5,747 nucleotides of DNA from a virus (lineage: Duplodnaviria; Heunggongvirae; Uroviricota; Caudoviricetes): the IMG/VR virus record IMGVR_UViG_2617270951_000013. One strand, 5' to 3'. Shown here one piece after another: positions 1-5,747 of this stretch. Positions within the stretch are counted from its first letter, which is position 1, and each line of letters opens with the position of its first letter. The translations under genes and the position numbers were made by a program. The notes below the pieces were generated by a model that was given only the letters and a program-made list of their open reading frames with translations, ran no database searches and was not told the DNA's origin.

Positions 1-597
1 TTATGCCTGGACAGTATGCATCAGACCGGCCATTTCATCTTTTACTGACTGAACTTGTGGCCCGATAACAACCTGCAGGTTATGTTGATTAAGTTGTACT
101 ACGCCAATTGCCCGATTGTCCTTCAGTGCCTGCACATTAACAAGCGACATATCTTTCACAGACAAACGCAGACGGGTAATGCAGTTATCGAGGCTGACAA
201 TATTGTCGGCACCGCCTAATGCTTCGAGGATTGCAGGAACGTTGTAACCTGATTTACCCGGCGCACCGGCAACGGCTTTTTCGATTGAGCTGGCAACTTC
301 GCTATCGCGCCCCGGGGTTTTCAGATTGAAGCGGGTGATAGCGAAACGGAAGATGACGTAGTAAACGACAAACCAGATTGCCGCCACCACTGGCACCATG
401 TACCACTTGGTTGACAGACCATGCAAAATACCGAACACCACGAAGTCGATGATATTGCCGTCGGTATTACCGATGGTGACGCCGAGCACAGACATGACGG
501 TGAAGCCGAGGCCGGTTAACAGCGCGTGGATGACATACAGAACTGGCGCTACGAACAGGAACAGGAATTCCAGCGGTTCGGTAGTTATAGCGCGGCG
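1..597 (-). pseudogene. 3' fragment of a glucose-family PTS EIICB permease gene (PtsG/MalX-like); roughly the N-terminal 60 percent of the gene is absent
   Basis: Minus-strand frame ending at TAA (3..1) encodes EIIC C-terminal helices (TTEPLEF, FVAPVLYVIHALL, KTPGR) followed by the EIIB phospho-cysteine motif CITRLR. PTS-like sequence stops near 597 and the frame meets a stop at 624..622, leaving about 195 C-terminal codons of what is normally a ~480-530 aa protein. Confidence 0.75.
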
Positions 598-713: not shown

Positions 714-1451
714 TCATTCACTCTCTTTCAAACCAGTTTTAACTGTTTGTGGTTTTGGGTAAGGCTGGACTTTGAATAGCTTTGTGTTAAGGCGTTTTCT
801 GGCTCTCTTGTCCAGAAACCGGATGTAACGAAACTGACGGAATTTATGAACACTGGCTCTGTCGATATTAGCCCGCAGATGTTCACCTCGCTGTCCTCCT
901 CGTTTGATTGCATTCTTGCAAATCTCGTGATACCACTCGCCATCAAGTTCATAGAATGTTGTTTCATGACTGCCTACATAATCAAAATTGCTTGCCTGGT
1001 ACACGACACCAAGACAGCCACAACGCTCATCTGCAAACGACTGAACCCACTGCACCTGCGGATAAAGTTGTCTGATTAGTTTGAGCGCGTAACTGATTGC
1101 CCTTGATTCGGAGTTTCTCGGCATACAGTCATGCAGCCATAACCGGTTAAGCTCCATATATTCGCGGTTCTGCGTGCCAGTTACGACGCGTGCACCATTG
1201 TTTGGATTAAGGGCATAACCCCATTGCATTACGCCAACCAGCTCCCGTTCTGAAAATATGCCCAGATGAAGGTAGGAATTATTTACGAAACGATGGCTGT
1301 AATGTTTATTGACGACGACCAGCCGGGCCAGCCAGCAACTTATTGTCTCAACCCGTAACTCACGGGAGCCATAACCGACGATATTGTCGTTATAGTGAAT
1401 AAGTTCAGGCGTGCTGATGATACGGGATGTAACTTGCTTTCTGTTCCCCAC
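714..1451 (-). CDS. mom: Mom-like DNA modification enzyme (phage Mu Mom family, adenine-modifying anti-restriction function); start codon uncertain
   Basis: Long minus-strand ORF ending at TGA (716..714) whose 5' end overlaps the 3' end of a Com-like zinc-finger gene in another frame, as in Mu com-mom. The only in-frame ATG upstream (1613) would overlap all of com, so the proposed start is GTG 1451..1449, preceded by AAGGA (1466..1462). The track ORF 714..1646 is an over-extension. Confidence 0.6.
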
Positions 1452-1605
1452 GACAGGATTTCCTTGTGTATGTGGGGTGCTCTGTGGCGCTCTGAGATGT
1501 GATTTGATTGAGGGTTTTACAGCGCGGACATTTAACTTCCAGATAACTGAAGCTGGCTCGTGCCAGTAGCTTGTTACAATGTCGGCACCGTATGTTTCGA
1601 TACAT
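1405..1605 (-). CDS. com: Com-like zinc-finger translational activator of mom (66 aa)
   Basis: ATG 1605..1603 preceded by GGAGG (1620..1616). Product [14 protein letters not shown]...VKCPRCK has a CxxC-15 residues-CxxC zinc-finger at residues 7/10/26/29 and an EHPT motif, both recalled from Mu Com. Its stop (1407..1405) lies inside the mom frame. Confidence 0.75.
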
Positions 1606-1648
1606 GGCCGCATAACCTCCTGCTTTGTTGTTGATATCTTTATCACTC

Positions 1649-1673
1649 AATCGATCGACAAAAACGATCGATT
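1649..1673. promoter_or_regulatory. Perfect 9-bp inverted repeat AATCGATCG / CGATCGATT (7-bp spacer), each arm containing a GATC Dam site; candidate methylation-sensitive operator or promoter element for com-mom
   Basis: Arms at 1649-1657 and 1665-1673; GATC at 1653-1656 and 1666-1669, with a third GATC at 1735-1738. The repeat sits about 45-70 bp upstream of the com ATG on the transcribed side. Confidence 0.4.
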
Positions 1674-1861
1674 TGATTTATTTAATTGATACAACAAATA
1701 ACACGAAATGTCATTAGCGAAAATTTATGAGTTTGATCACTAATTTTAAACGGTGCTGTAACGCATAAGTGCTGAATGATTGTACATTTGAATACCGCAA
1801 AGCAAACAAATCAACTAATTTATAGAAGTCAATTGGTTAATTGCCAGCGTAAGAGGCTGCT

Positions 1862-2155
1862 ATGGACAATCATGTAACGACGAGAAATCGAAAAATGATT
1901 GAAAATGCGGAAATCTATAATGATTATTTTTCCGATTATTCAGATGCCTGCAAATACAGTTCGAGTGCGGGAGAGTTCATATGCTTCAACTTTTTTATTA
2001 AATCTTATGTTTTTCCTCCACAGCAAGAAGATGGAGGTGTGCCACCTCCTGAAATCACTTTGCACCGTATAGCCTCCGTCTCAATGATGGAGCAACAGGC
2101 TAATGAGCTGTATAGCATTCTGGGAACGATTCTACAAAAGCGTGAATCGGACTAA
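1862..2155 (+). CDS. Hypothetical 97-aa protein (orphan ORF in AT-rich island), divergent from com-mom
   Basis: ATG 1862 preceded by AAGAGG (1851-1856) with a 5-nt spacer; a 291-nt open frame in markedly AT-rich DNA where stops are frequent; TAA stop at 2153-2155. No recognisable motif. Confidence 0.4.
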   Translation: MDNHVTTRNRKMIENAEIYNDYFSDYSDACKYSSSAGEFICFNFFIKSYVFPPQQEDGGVPPPEITLHRIASVSMMEQQANELYSILGTILQKRESD

Positions 2156-2322
2156 TGATACCGGTTCATTTGCCTGCCCGGATGGGGAAGCAGGATTGAC
2201 TGCTCCATAAGCAGCTATATTTCTGAATACGAAATACTATCCAGCGATTACATATGGCTGGATAGCGGCAAAGATGTTTTCATTAGTGTCAAACCGGCAG
2301 AGGACACCACCGGTTTGTATTG

Positions 2323-2577
2323 TTACATCATGGTACTGTCAGTTCCGGGCTGAGCCGGGTCTGGTTGCTCTGGCTGCGCGTCGGTTTTCGGCTCATTATC
2401 AGCATCACTGGCCGCAACTGCTGGCCCAATAAGTTTTGCCAGCACTTCATCAACGTAAGTGTCGATTTGTGCCTCAAAATCCTTGCGGACCTGCGCTTTC
2501 AGCAACTTATTTACTTCACCGGAATACAGTGCCTGTTTTACCAGGTCTTCAGTGACGGTGCCTTTAATTTCTGGCAT
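2323..2577 (-). CDS. Hypothetical small acidic protein (84 aa) with predicted N-terminal amphipathic helix and Pro/Asp/Glu-rich tail
   Basis: ATG 2577..2575 preceded by a strong SD AAGGAGGA (2590..2583); net acidic composition (about 16 D/E vs 8 K/R); TAA stop 2325..2323. Confidence 0.6.
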   Translation of the reverse strand: MPEIKGTVTEDLVKQALYSGEVNKLLKAQVRKDFEAQIDTYVDEVLAKLIGPAVAASDADNEPKTDAQPEQPDPAQPGTDSTMM

Positions 2578-2612
2578 GTATATCCTCCTTATGCGGGAAT
2601 AAAGCCCTGCAA

Positions 2613-2795
2613 TCAGGGCTGGGTCGGGTCTTTTGGGAGCGGAGTTACCTGCGCTGTTTTACTGAGTTTTTCAGCTGCTGCGTCCTCAATTTTGCGGCGA
2701 ACATAATTTCTGATGGCCTTATAACCACCACTCACCAGATATAACGCACATACTGCCGTGCAGAAATACAATAAAATAAGCTGTAAAAATGTCAT
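2613..2795 (-). CDS. Hypothetical small membrane peptide (60 aa): one N-terminal hydrophobic helix plus a basic/charged tail
   Basis: ATG 2795..2793 just downstream of GGGAGGG (2805..2799); product MTFLQLILLYFCTAVCALYLVSGG... then KAIRNYVRRKIED...; TGA stop 2615..2613. The track ORF starts at a TTG (2807) that lies inside the SD, so the ATG is preferred. Confidence 0.5.
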   Translation of the reverse strand: MTFLQLILLYFCTAVCALYLVSGGYKAIRNYVRRKIEDAAAEKLSKTAQVTPLPKDPTQP

Positions 2796-2810
2796 TATCC
2801 CTCCCAATTA

Positions 2811-2827
2811 TTGACATGGTGTTGACA
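2811..2827 (+). promoter_or_regulatory. Two tandem consensus -35 hexamers (TTGACA at 2811-2816 and 2822-2827); candidate plus-strand promoter with only weak -10 candidates
   Basis: Exact TTGACA twice, 11 bp apart. Downstream -10 candidates are imperfect: TAATAT at 2832-2837 (15-bp spacer from the first hexamer) and TAAAAA at 2846-2851 (18-bp spacer from the second). Confidence 0.25.
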
Positions 2828-2890
2828 CCGGTAATATCTGTTAGGTAAAAAGGTGCACTGCATTTTTTGCTTTGGATATAACGATCTTTT

Positions 2891-2932
2891 TGCCGCCGGT
2901 TTCTTGTTTTCCCTTACCGGCGGCATTTTTTT
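2891..2932 (+). terminator. Strong plus-strand rho-independent terminator
   Basis: Perfect 10-bp GC-rich stem TGCCGCCGGT (2891-2900) / ACCGGCGGCA (2916-2925), 15-nt loop, then T7 (2926-2932). On the minus strand the stem is followed by A-runs, so it is oriented for plus-strand transcripts only. Confidence 0.6.
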
Positions 2933-2939
2933 ATCCTGC

Positions 2940-4994
2940 TTACGCGTTATTCACTTCCACCACGATACTGTCAATCAGTACCGGGTAAGTCGCATTTTTA
3001 GTGATATCGGTCACGCGCAACTTGTCTGCCGTAAACGTGCCGACCGGAGACTGCGACAGCATGAATGGTGTCCCGTCCTTACCATCAATGACCGGCGTCA
3101 CCTCAATACTGTTGTTACCGGCAAAACGGAAGCCCAGCGTATGCCATTCGTTATTAAATGCGCCGAATGACCCCAGCTTCGTGTTCTGCGCCGTGTTTCC
3201 TTTGTGATACATCACGTTAAGGTCTGTGGCATCGCTCTGTACGTAAAACGATGCCAGCAGGTTATGACCGGCATTACCTTCCAGTGTGACGCCCTGAGGA
3301 AGCGAAGAAACCGGCCAGTACAGCGCCAGTGCGTACTGATTAGCCGTAAGCGCGCCATCAAGTTTAAAACGACAGCTGACAAGGCCACCTTTTTCCAGCA
3401 GGTCGGCACCATTACCGGCATCATGCTCAAGGTACCAGGGGGCTCTTCCTGTTTCCTTAGTCATTTTCATTGCCTTACCCCCGCTGGCTCCGGCATCATC
3501 CACGATTTGAGCCTTGCCACCTCCGGCAGCCCAACCCTGTGGTGTCAACCGTCCTTCAGACTCAGATGCCCGGTAAGCAAATAGCGTACTCATCGTCGTG
3601 GTGTCTGCGGGTGGCGTGGACGGTTTTGATGGTGTATCAGGTGACGGCTTCTCATCCGGTGGTGTCACGGTCTGCCCGCGCATCAGTTCAGCCGTGCGCC
3701 CTGCATGGAGCATAATAGCTGAGGCCAGACGGTCTGAAATGACGCCCCTGCGTGCCCATGAGCTGAAATGGCTGTCACGCTGTGTCGAAACAAAACTGCC
3801 CTGGGTTCGGGATGCTGCACCGTAATACCCGACAGCCACAATATCCGGGTCTTCCGCCGGAGCATTCGTTGGCGTGCTCTGTCCATTCTCATCCGTCAGG
3901 AACGGTACAAAGAAAATTTTCTGTGCTTCCTTGCCTTTGTAGCCACCGTATACTGCCTCATATTTATCGGTGCCAGCGTTTTTCCAGTAATACGTGGTAT
4001 CACCGCAAATCCACGGCACCGTGGTGGCATTTCCACTCACGCACTGCGCAGCAAGCGGAGCCAGGTCAGTTCTGAACTGCTGAACCATGGCCGTGAATAA
4101 ACTATTATGCTGCTGGCTTCCTGAGGCAAGGTCTGCCTCTCCCTGCATCCAGACCACAGCCAGAAGTTTGTTTTTCGGGTTTTTCGCCAGCGCGACTTTG
4201 GTGCGGCTTACCAGGTCCTGATACAGAGGTTTACCGGCCCCCCAGCGTGAAGAATCAGCGGAAGCACCGCTGGCCTCACTGAATGAGCCGTCGGCTCCAG
4301 TGGTGAATGCTGACCCGCCACGACAACAGGGCACCAGAAGTATCCCGGCATTCTGTGGGATATAGGGAAGCAGTTTTTTGGCAATATGCAACCCCTGACC
4401 GACAGTCCCGTACTGGCCTTTTGCCAGATCAGCTTTCGGGTGGTTTATCCCGCTCATATCCTGAACATCATGCAGGCAGTGGTCTGCCGGAATGATGTCG
4501 TTGTATGTACACGACGTACCGTTGGGCGTTACCGTACTGCGGCGTGCCAGTTGCTTAATGCGTGGGTCCGGGCGGTCAAACGAATCCGGTAACGGCAGCC
4601 CCTCGCCGTAGGCCATGCCATTTGACTGACCCGCGAGAATGACAACAAAGTAATATTCCGGCTCTGAACTGCTGCCATTCGTGCTACCGGAAGGCCCGGC
4701 GTTATCCGGTGCATTCCAGTCGGAGGGCGTGAGCGTTCCGGCCACGTCAGATGTGATTGGAATGATGCCAGTCACGCCTGAACTGGTGATTTCTGCACTG
4801 GGATTACCGGATACCGGCATTACCCATAATGGCTCTTTCGTGCTGAAGCGGATCACGCAGTCTGCGAAGGTGATCCCCCCTTTATTACCCGAAGGGCGGA
4901 AAGGGCTTTCAATAAATGCCACCGTGCCACCGGCAACCTTGACTGAAAACTCTCCGGGCATGGCGGAGAGCATTTTCCACTTGGAGTCTGACAT
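2940..4994 (-). CDS. 684-aa multidomain esterase: N-terminal ~110-aa domain, SASA/SGNH-type carbohydrate esterase domain (sialate O-acetylesterase-like, comparable to prophage NanS-p), Pro/Ser/Thr-rich linker, C-terminal ~200-aa beta-rich putative lectin domain
   Basis: ATG 4994..4992, TAA 2942..2940. GQSN motif (residues 122-125, nt 4631..4620) and a downstream QGEAD block, which I recall as SASA-family hallmarks; linker TVTPPDEKPSPDTPSKPSTPPADTTT; C-terminal region rich in beta-type residues with no catalytic motifs. Confidence 0.8.
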   Translation of the reverse strand: MSDSKWKMLSAMPGEFSVKVAGGTVAFIESPFRPSGNKGGITFADCVIRFSTKEPLWVMPVSGNPSAEITSSGVTGIIPITSDVAGTLTPSDWNAPDNAGPSGSTNGSSSEPEYYFVVILAGQSNGMAYGEGLPLPDSFDRPDPRIKQLARRSTVTPNGTSCTYNDIIPADHCLHDVQDMSGINHPKADLAKGQYGTVGQGLHIAKKLLPYIPQNAGILLVPCCRGGSAFTTGADGSFSEASGASADSSRWGAGKPLYQDLVSRTKVALAKNPKNKLLAVVWMQGEADLASGSQQHNSLFTAMVQQFRTDLAPLAAQCVSGNATTVPWICGDTTYYWKNAGTDKYEAVYGGYKGKEAQKIFFVPFLTDENGQSTPTNAPAEDPDIVAVGYYGAASRTQGSFVSTQRDSHFSSWARRGVISDRLASAIMLHAGRTAELMRGQTVTPPDEKPSPDTPSKPSTPPADTTTMSTLFAYRASESEGRLTPQGWAAGGGKAQIVDDAGASGGKAMKMTKETGRAPWYLEHDAGNGADLLEKGGLVSCRFKLDGALTANQYALALYWPVSSLPQGVTLEGNAGHNLLASFYVQSDATDLNVMYHKGNTAQNTKLGSFGAFNNEWHTLGFRFAGNNSIEVTPVIDGKDGTPFMLSQSPVGTFTADKLRVTDITKNATYPVLIDSIVVEVNNA

Positions 4995-5069: not shown

Positions 5070-5099
5070 CAAAAAAGCGTCACGGTACTTTTGGTGACG
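5070..5099 (-). terminator. Candidate minus-strand intrinsic terminator overlapping the invertase stop codon
   Basis: 6-bp stem CGTCAC (5078-5083) / GTGACG (5094-5099), 10-nt loop; on the minus-strand RNA it is followed by CUUUUUUG (5077..5070). The stem is short, so confidence is modest. Confidence 0.35.
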
Positions 5100-5652
5100 G
5101 AGCTGGTGAGGCAGGAAAATAACGATAAAGGGGGGAAAGGCCAATATCAAATATCAGTGCGATTTGTTTACGGGACTCGCCATTAGCCAGCAAACGGGCG
5201 ATTTGCTCCCGCTCTTTCTCTGTCAGTTTCTGAGGTCTGCCGCCATGACGCCCCTGAGCACGGGCAGCAGCAAGACCCGCGCGTGTACGTTCAATAATGA
5301 GTTCCCGCTCCATTTCCGCCAGCGCGCCCATTATATGGAAAAAGAAACGTCCCATGGGAGTGGATGTATCAATATTGTCCGTAATGCTGCGGAAGTTAAC
5401 GCCGCGTTGCCGGAGTTCTTCTGTTAAAAGGACAAGGTGCTGCATACTGCGTCCAAGGCGATCCAGTTTCCAGACCAGCAGGGTATCCCCTGGCCGGAGT
5501 CGCTTTAATGCGCGTTTAAGTCCGGGACGCTCCCTTGTCTTACCGCTTATTCTGTCTTCGAAAAACAGCTCACATCCTGCACATTCCAGCGCATTTCTTT
5601 GTAGCGCCGTATTCTGGTCATTTGTTGACACCCTGATATACCCAATCAGCAT
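5080..5652 (-). CDS. Serine-recombinase DNA invertase of the Gin/Pin/Cin/Hin family (190 aa)
   Basis: Product begins MLIGYIRVSTNDQ (catalytic Ser motif) and carries GYIRVS, LDRLGRS and a C-terminal HTH-like region; ATG 5652..5650 preceded by AAGGA with a 6-nt spacer; TGA stop 5082..5080. Confidence 0.92.
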   Translation of the reverse strand: MLIGYIRVSTNDQNTALQRNALECAGCELFFEDRISGKTRERPGLKRALKRLRPGDTLLVWKLDRLGRSMQHLVLLTEELRQRGVNFRSITDNIDTSTPMGRFFFHIMGALAEMERELIIERTRAGLAAARAQGRHGGRPQKLTEKEREQIARLLANGESRKQIALIFDIGLSPLYRYFPASPAPSPKVP

Positions 5653-5717: not shown

Positions 5718-5743
5718 TTCCTGAAAACCTCGGTTTACGGGAA
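5718..5743. other. 26-bp gix/hix-type crossover site (TTCCTGAAAACC-TC-GGTTTACGGGAA) upstream of the invertase gene
   Basis: Two inverted 12-bp half-sites ending in AAACC / GGTTT around a 2-bp core, matching the Gin/Hin/Cin/Pin crossover-site pattern as I recall it; it lies about 66 bp upstream of the invertase start. Confidence 0.7.
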
Positions 5744-5747
5744 ACGG

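Follow-up and report, generated by a model that had tools for sequence, protein, structure and literature searches.

Sialate O-acetylesterases of the NanS-p type are discussed almost solely for Shiga toxin (Stx) and lambdoid prophages. The lambdoid NanS-p proteins de-O-acetylate 5-N-acetyl-9-O-acetylneuraminic acid (Neu5,9Ac2) and mucin glycans, enterohaemorrhagic Escherichia coli (EHEC) can grow on Neu5,9Ac2 by means of them, and the C-terminal domain of these proteins is a proposed carbohydrate-binding module (PMC8065619, PMC10462455). In phages Min27 and PhiR12_2 the gene is found in the order Q-(stx)-esterase-DUF1378-DUF826-holin. The right end of the transposable phages Mu, D108 and SfMu holds a different set of genes, namely the invertase gene gin followed by com and mom. 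Here we analyse a stretch of 5,747 nucleotides (nt) from the virus record IMGVR_UViG_2617270951_000013 of IMG/VR (the window, in what follows, is this whole stretch), which covers the right end of a Mu-like, transposable (Sp18-type) prophage that interrupts malX of E. coli. Four genes lie between gin and com in this prophage. The reading that we favour, with a probability of roughly 0.7, is that three of them make up a nanS-p cassette that is shared horizontally, with a small orphan gene, variable between lineages, after it.

The window resembles Mu, D108 and SfMu in gin, com and mom, in the gene order toward the right end, in a gix site and in a GATC-rich motif upstream of com. It differs in the distance between gin and com. 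In Mu the gap from the gin stop codon to the com ATG is 94 nt and the mom promoter (Pmom) overlaps the 3′ end of gin, whereas in the window the gap is 3,474 nt (some 3.4 kb) and the C-terminal tail of Gin is also different. Short gaps are likewise found in Yersinia Mu-like phages (59-83 nt) and in the three cross-species loci having both gin and mom (at most about 280 nt). None of the island proteins is encoded in 19 cross-species mom loci, where gin, if present, abuts com-mom, and contiguous Mu-type gin-com-mom is found in 44 complete E. coli genomes. Because classical Mu-type elements show an empty site, the interval is accessory DNA relative to Mu. A preliminary description of the locus had stated that the Mu invertase directly precedes com-mom and had recognised four genes of differing base composition inserted at this position, and both statements are borne out: the G+C content (GC) is 0.548 for the esterase gene, 0.448 for DUF1378, 0.502 for DUF826 and 0.398 for the orphan gene (orf97), compared with 0.517 for gin and 0.463 for mom.

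The gene next to gin (2940-4994, minus strand) encodes a protein of 684 amino acids (aa) that we assign to the NanS-p-type sialate O-acetylesterases. Residues 110-428 match the NanS structure (PDB 3PT5, E 1.8e-117; Pfam SASA, E 1.5e-13), and residues 469-683 match the lectin-like jelly-roll domain at the C-terminus of NanS-p (PDB 6YP6, E 1.2e-98; DUF6645, PF20350, E 5.7e-69). In the DNA, the Mu-type N-terminal domain spans 4668-4994, the SASA/SGNH catalytic domain 3711-4667 and the lectin-like DUF6645 domain 2946-3590. This assignment is further supported by the NanS-type SGNH blocks, which have been defined as the GQSN serine, a glycine, QGE and the histidine of R-x-S-H (PMC10462455). Indeed, when the protein is aligned with the NanS-p proteins of Min27 and PhiR12_2, GQSN (S124), G226, QGE (284-286) and H409 do not vary. 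Overall identity to lambdoid NanS-p is 54-62%, and relatives of the esterase are found in 349 phage records, mostly of Stx-converting phages. A hydropathy check, which is not a dedicated signal peptide predictor, detected no hydrophobic N-terminal segment in the esterase, the maximum Kyte-Doolittle average over 19 residues being 0.92 within the first 45 residues. Judged by its sequence, the gene embedded in this prophage encodes an intact NanS-p-type esterase with a lectin-like, carbohydrate-binding C-terminal domain and without a signal peptide.

Two small genes on the same strand follow the esterase gene. The first (2613-2795, minus strand) encodes a single-pass membrane protein of 60 aa that belongs to DUF1378 (Pfam PF07125, E 1e-31) and has one hydrophobic segment at residues 3-21, and the second (2323-2577, minus strand) encodes a small soluble protein of 84 aa that belongs to DUF826 (Pfam PF05696, E 6e-16; PHROG 311). 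From these family matches and their order we identify the three genes as the known esterase-DUF1378-DUF826 cassette of lambdoid Stx phages. The preliminary description had spoken of unassigned genes in the island, but three of the four are not unassigned. The lambdoid NanS-p proteins (933W z1466/L0105, phi24B vb_24B_21 and Min27 gp43) contain the same catalytic and C-terminal domains and also have no signal peptide, and the lambdoid Stx cassettes share with the window both the gene order and an antisense promoter/terminator unit after the esterase stop codon. The two differ in their surroundings, since the lambdoid cassette lies between stx/Q and the holin gene while that of the window lies between gin and com-mom of a transposable phage. 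No holin, Q, stx or STnc100 was found in the window, and there is no STnc100/PasD-like RNA upstream of the esterase gene, unlike in lambdoid phages. In comparisons with diverged copies, substitutions in the esterase, DUF1378 and DUF826 genes are strongly biased toward the third codon position, and the esterase gene differs from that of locus L031 by 150 synonymous and 58 non-synonymous codon changes. All three genes evolve under purifying selection.

The cassette is also constant within the phage lineage. Esterase, DUF1378 and DUF826 genes occur in the same order in all nine compared right ends of this lineage, and four further loci, recovered through an open reading frame (ORF) in the slot beside com that is described below as type B, carry the three genes too. 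One of the nine is Sp18 of E. coli O157:H7 Sakai (ECs_4992-ECs_4998), which shows the same succession of gin, esterase, DUF1378, DUF826, an orphan gene on the plus strand, com, mom and right end, and which shares 95% nucleotide identity with the window over the part from com to the right end, mom included. Sp18 differs in having a diverged allele of the cassette (66% protein identity for the esterase), in carrying ECs_4996 in the slot instead of orf97 and in being inserted at sorM instead of malX. The divergence of the cassette is as deep as that of the phage itself (66% protein identity for the esterase vs 78% for Gin). The cassette is a stable trait of the lineage and not a site of shuffling, and variability is limited to the slot of about 0.6 kb beside com, which has two unrelated contents, to the mom position and to the loss or frameshift of gin. 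The interval is a hotspot only in this limited sense. The hotspot for restriction-related and host-interaction morons that had been proposed for it is retained in so far as the interval is accessory and its main gene is a host-interaction moron; it is not hypervariable, and none of about 30 loci examined holds a restriction-related gene between gin and com. A conserved gene order among related elements, which the preliminary description had named as an observation that would speak against its proposal, is seen in part, with three genes fixed in the nine plus four loci and the slot and the mom position varying.

The neighbourhood of the island could also be taken to place orf97, DUF1378 and DUF826 in restriction evasion, superinfection exclusion or anti-phage defence. 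The adjacent genes are anti-restriction genes, and 10 complete E. coli genomes have exchanged mom, after the same com, for the gene of a C5 cytosine DNA methyltransferase (PF00145, 350 aa). The slot beside com is polymorphic and AT-rich and holds ORFans that are divergent from com, as is typical of recent accessory genes. A precedent is e14, which carries mcrA after pinE, as the preliminary description had correctly stated, and which resembles the window in having an accessory gene between the invertase gene and the end of the element. However, e14 is an integrase-based, lambdoid-like element whose unrelated cargo encodes a type IV restriction enzyme, and only the invertase is shared in sequence. 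Moreover, none of the island genes has a convincing match in PADLOC: the esterase, DUF1378 and orf97 gave no hit in PADLOC-DB 2.0, and a match of DUF826 to PbeC (E 0.0076, 12.9 bits) is marginal and was treated as noise. DUF1378 and DUF826 belong to the esterase cassette, because both travel with the esterase in lambdoid phages, beside lysis genes, and those relatives of the esterase itself that have been characterised by experiment are sialate O-acetylesterases supporting growth on Neu5,9Ac2 (PMC8065619, PMC10462455). For orf97 neither a homologue outside its own cluster nor a confident fold was detected. We therefore consider a defence or anti-defence role of these genes, as suggested earlier, to be very unlikely. 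The outcome of the search for defence systems is mainly negative; orf97 is the only legitimately open candidate, and nothing found points to defence.

The N-terminal domain of the esterase sets the Mu-type alleles apart. Residues 1-109 have no Pfam match and do not contain DUF1737, the domain that heads both the lambdoid and the P2-type esterases. In its place stands an N-terminal region of about 105 aa that is common only to Mu-type alleles, among which it is 58-97% identical, and whose identity to lambdoid N-termini (about 20-25%) is at noise level. A homologue search with this N-terminus returned only fragments of the same protein, and its AlphaFold model has a mean predicted local distance difference test (pLDDT) score of 34. 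The remaining domains show a different history. The Sp18-like allele is 80% identical to Min27 in the catalytic domain and 82% in the C-terminal domain and only 69% and 74% identical to the window, and the esterase of strain STEC299 has an entirely different C-terminal domain. Since the catalytic and C-terminal domains are mosaic in this way, Mu-type and lambdoid alleles exchange domains by recombination.

A backbone-specific N-terminus, different in Mu-type esterases and in the DUF1737-bearing lambdoid and P2 proteins, in combination with swapped downstream domains is also the pattern of tail-spike modularity. The esterase might accordingly serve the phage, as a virion-borne or released enzyme that de-O-acetylates bacterial surface glycans (the O-antigen, or a capsule such as O-acetylated polysialic acid), and it could then aid adsorption or progeny release, or cut the loss of progeny on the debris of lysed cells. 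Such a role has been raised as a possibility in a review (PMC8065619). Some phage tail proteins do have SASA/SGNH domains (PHROG 25867 'tail protein', E 1.2e-6, and a minor tail protein of an Arthrobacter phage), and the esterase gene directly follows the tail-fibre/invertase module in the window and lies between lysis and tail genes in P2-like prophages. In lambdoid phages, however, the gene is found outside the structural module. Sialic acids and mucin are the substrates of the alleles that have been characterised, which also give a growth phenotype (PMC8065619), and recombination confined to homologous parts explains a backbone-specific N-terminus equally well. An esterase acting for the phage in this manner thus appears unlikely, although less so than the defence role considered above.

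Outside the lambdoid and Mu-like phages, an esterase with the domain order DUF1737-SASA-DUF6645 is found in the late region of P2-like prophages (Peduoviridae, P88-type), where it is accompanied by neither DUF1378 nor DUF826. Here the solitary gene has lysC on one side and the tail genes R/S on the other (L039 3874-5751, E. coli 4/1-1). This arrangement is very common, as the P2-type junction query is at least 80% present in 375 complete E. coli genomes. Because P2-like prophages carry the esterase alone, DUF1378 and DUF826 are frequent partners of the enzyme and not obligatory ones.

If the Mu-type esterase acts as its lambdoid relatives do, it would strip 9-O-acetyl groups from Neu5,9Ac2 and from O-acetylated mucin glycans. 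The N-acetylneuraminic acid (Neu5Ac) freed in this way would feed the sialic-acid catabolic pathway of E. coli, and by the same analogy the lysogen population would gain a growth advantage in the gut. Since the enzyme lacks an export signal, we infer that it most likely meets its substrate once prophage induction has led to the lysis of part of the cells. Going by the respective model phages, the esterase gene would lie in or beside late-transcribed regions in all three backbones, namely that of lambdoid pR′, the P2 late operon and the Mu right end. Relative to Mu, the cassette has taken the place of about 40 nt at the junction of the gin 3′ end and the com promoter, and it has since diverged along with the phage lineage while swapping domains with lambdoid alleles.

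Several points weigh against the reading of the island as a nanS-p cassette of this kind. The activity of the Mu-type allele is carried over from lambdoid NanS-p by analogy, and since its N-terminal domain is unlike that of every characterised NanS-p, its localisation or its partners could differ. Release by lysis is deduced from the missing export signal. The P2-like esterase dispenses with both DUF1378 and DUF826, and its solitary occurrence weakens the notion of the three genes as an obligatory unit. In addition, a promoter search for the cassette yielded only a weak promoter-like site at 5150-5122.

The island represents nanS-p, a host-fitness moron of a known kind, in a backbone that is not discussed in the searchable literature, and we found no paper mentioning ECs4993-4996. 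The same architecture became public with the Sakai genome, and RefSeq annotates it by domain. What the present comparison adds to the lambdoid picture is that the cassette is also fixed in Sp18-type Mu-like prophages. The esterase family is found in lambdoid, Mu-like and P2-like prophages, and sialic-acid de-O-acetylation has therefore been spread by at least three phage lineages, one of which is transposable and able to multiply within a genome. Scans limited to lambdoid prophages may underestimate how many nanS-p alleles a strain has and how much these contribute to growth on mucin. The Mu context also provides a natural experiment, in that it sets the cassette apart from the lambdoid lysis genes, which bears on the role of DUF1378 and DUF826.

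We further note a set of conserved motifs upstream of the esterase start. The segment 5000-5075 (minus strand) contains TGAATT..CGCAAAA and TTTAATTCAG.AACAGGC, including a TGAATT/AATTCA inverted repeat, and these motifs are kept in the diverged Mu-type copies of loci L034, L002, L029, L031 and L028. The cassette could be regulated through them.

The region between the esterase and DUF1378 genes contains a candidate antisense small RNA (sRNA) unit at 2822-2932 (plus strand), the promoter-like hexamers and terminator of which are kept in six Mu-type and two lambdoid cassettes. In the window, a -35 hexamer TTGACA (2822-2827) is separated by an 18-nt spacer from a -10 hexamer TAAAAA (2846-2851), and the predicted transcript of about 75 nt ends in a terminator hairpin at 2892-2924 that is followed by seven T residues at 2926-2932. 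The same design is found in 8/8 cassettes: on the antisense strand, TTGAC(A/T), 17-18 nt, TAAAAA, 74-103 nt, a GC-rich hairpin and 6-8 T residues. Equivalent units lie at 5270-5347 (minus strand) in L003 and also in L034, L002, L029, L031, L028 and L004. In the terminator stem, five of nine pairs are altered on both sides, as compensatory changes. We further note that the intergenic region after the esterase stop codon has the best nucleotide conservation between Mu-type and lambdoid cassettes (81%). The PasA and PasC sRNAs have been placed directly beside the sialic acid esterase gene of lambdoid prophages, according to a 2026 preprint. From its position after the esterase gene and its 3′ hairpin with poly-U, the candidate unit is probably a prophage sRNA of the PasA/PasC type. 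Rfam scored Esr41 (RF02676) at 22.2 bits (E 0.73; gathering threshold 102 bits) over 2852-2934 (plus strand), and a weak Esr41-like match is also present at the equivalent place in Min27. True identity with Esr41 was rejected, given this sub-threshold score and the encoding of Esr41 on SpLE1 (PMC5286369).

The esterase gene, the sRNA unit, DUF1378 and DUF826 stay linked across two unrelated backbones, lambdoid and Mu-like, which has led us to consider that they form a portable module. In such a module the small proteins would export or anchor the esterase or time its release, and the sRNA would tune host genes; the ORFans of the slot (orf97 or the ECs_4996-like ORF) would be lineage-specific partners of the anti-restriction switch formed by mom or the C5 methyltransferase. 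We think it quite unlikely that this extended scheme is correct as a whole.

Adjacent to the nanS-p cassette, the slot beside com is occupied in the window by an AT-rich segment that we call type A (1715-2322, GC 0.40). It has no similarity to the slots of Sp18, L002, L027, L029 and L030, and the type A slot with orf97 is found in 18 of 5,426 complete E. coli genomes. The gene orf97 (1862-2155, plus strand) is preceded by an AAGAGG Shine-Dalgarno sequence 5 nt before its ATG at 1862, and RefSeq lists a form of 86 aa that starts at 1895. It has no family match in Pfam, PHROG, PADLOC or NCBIfam, and both a search of 5.8 billion proteins and an exhaustive HMMER scan covering 1.84 billion representatives yielded homologues only in an E. 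coli/Shigella cluster. Its single-sequence AlphaFold model is of low confidence (pLDDT 55), and a Foldseek comparison of this model with the PDB returned nothing below E 0.19.

These properties raise the question of whether orf97 is a gene at all. Segment 1715-2322 may instead be an AT-rich spacer, or DNA that regulates the com-mom promoter, in which the reading frame is fortuitous. A comparison with a diverged copy, 81% identical across the slot and 89% within the aligned ORF, gives evidence in both directions. The amino-acid identity of 79% is slightly lower than the nucleotide identity of the slot, and the 17 non-synonymous codon changes outnumber the 9 synonymous ones; the lack of homologues outside this context and the low pLDDT point the same way. 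On the other side, the frame remains open (97-100 aa) in the diverged copy, and substitutions by codon position (11/6/15) are fewest at the second position. A promoter-like site at 1841-1870 lies near the start of orf97, the Shine-Dalgarno sequence is in place, and the alternative slot type likewise has a plus-strand ORF at the same place. A fortuitous frame seems to us the less probable explanation, though one with an appreciable chance of being right. We regard orf97 as a separate, recently acquired ORFan, the selective constraint on which is weak.

The alternative content, which we call type B, is found in Sp18, L002, L027, L029 and L030, where the slot contains an unrelated, ECs_4996-like ORF of 135-154 aa on the plus strand. 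ECs_4996 itself has 154 aa and a C-terminal CxxC...CxxC motif, and the type B ORF is disrupted in several copies. Searches of orf97 and the type B ORF against PADLOC, PHROG, Pfam and NCBIfam gave nothing beyond a weak hint of a Trm112p-like zinc ribbon. The type B slots of L027 (4021-4874), L029 (4021-4953) and L030 (4022-4956) are 230-315 nt longer than that of Sp18. An internal partial duplication in these longer slots breaks the ECs_4996-like ORF and creates an ORF of 66 aa on the minus strand.

The slot is followed by a com-proximal block of about 109 nt (1606-1714, minus strand), which is common to all slot variants and about 82-94% identical across both types. Next to it lies com (1405-1605, minus strand), which encodes the zinc-ribbon translational activator of mom (Pfam Zn_ribbon_Com; RefSeq annotation of an identical copy), and mom (714-1451, minus strand), which encodes the adenine-modifying anti-restriction enzyme (Pfam Mom, E 1.6e-77; 78% identity with Mu Mom). 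Positions 1405-1451 belong to both ORFs, which are located at the right end of a transposable phage, as expected of a Mu-type com-mom operon. A palindrome, AATCGATCG-N7-CGATCGATT, with two GATC sites is found at 1649-1673, some 45 nt before the com ATG. The Dam/OxyR region of Mu is similar but lies much farther from com, and matches to the Mu C-protein site TTAT-N6-ATAA in the vicinity of com or the esterase gene did not exceed chance. With the palindrome close to com and no C-binding site nearby, the geometry of the mom promoter must therefore differ from that of Mu. The C5 methyltransferase mentioned above is exemplified by L002 (LC727881), where it occupies 6165-7217 (minus strand). At the mom position, one DNA-modification anti-restriction gene has been exchanged for another, and the methyltransferase is possibly still under Com control.

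The outer part of the window identifies the insertion. Positions 1-585 (minus strand) encode the 3′ part of malX, corresponding to residues ~337-530 of the maltose IICB component of the phosphotransferase system (PTS) (NCBIfam PRK10110, profile 337-530/530, E 1.7e-117), and this segment is found in nearly all E. coli genomes. The prophage ends at position 586, within malX, and breaks the host gene at about codon 336. The segment 586-713 is the right end of the Mu-like (Sp18-type) prophage. This placement is supported by homology to copies of the element at other chromosomal sites, which begins at 583-586, and by LC727881, in which the end annotated for the Mu-like insert matches position 586. 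The exact malX/prophage junction at 586 was not found among the complete E. coli genomes of the collection, while the Sp18-type right end occurs in about 230 of the 5,426. Other copies disrupt ypdB, a motility-associated gene, flgL, a molybdopterin-oxidoreductase gene beside torY, cho, a molybdopterin cofactor-binding gene beside xdhB, and sorM. Near-identical copies of the element thus sit in differing genes across genomes, which fits the expectation for transposition, and the end of the element, taken for an attachment site in the preliminary description, is a transposition junction.

Read along the minus strand, the prophage part of the window consists of a gix-like site, gin, esterase, DUF1378, DUF826, com and mom, with orf97 lying between DUF826 and com as the only phage gene on the plus strand. 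The gix-like inverted-repeat site at 5724-5747 (24 nt) marks the edge of an invertible tail-fibre segment and is a 96% match to both boundaries of the Mu G segment. The adjacent gene (5080-5652, minus strand) encodes a gin-type serine invertase (Pfam Resolvase and HTH_7) that is 73% identical to Mu Gin. This gene has been lost or damaged in some copies of the element. In strains M3 and CI5 it is deleted (L028 7446-7750; L031 7814-8118), and a remnant of about 70 nt from the gin 3′ end precedes the esterase gene, while in DLI.5a it is frameshifted (L001 10498-11069). Presumably, the orientation of the tail-fibre segment is fixed in these copies.

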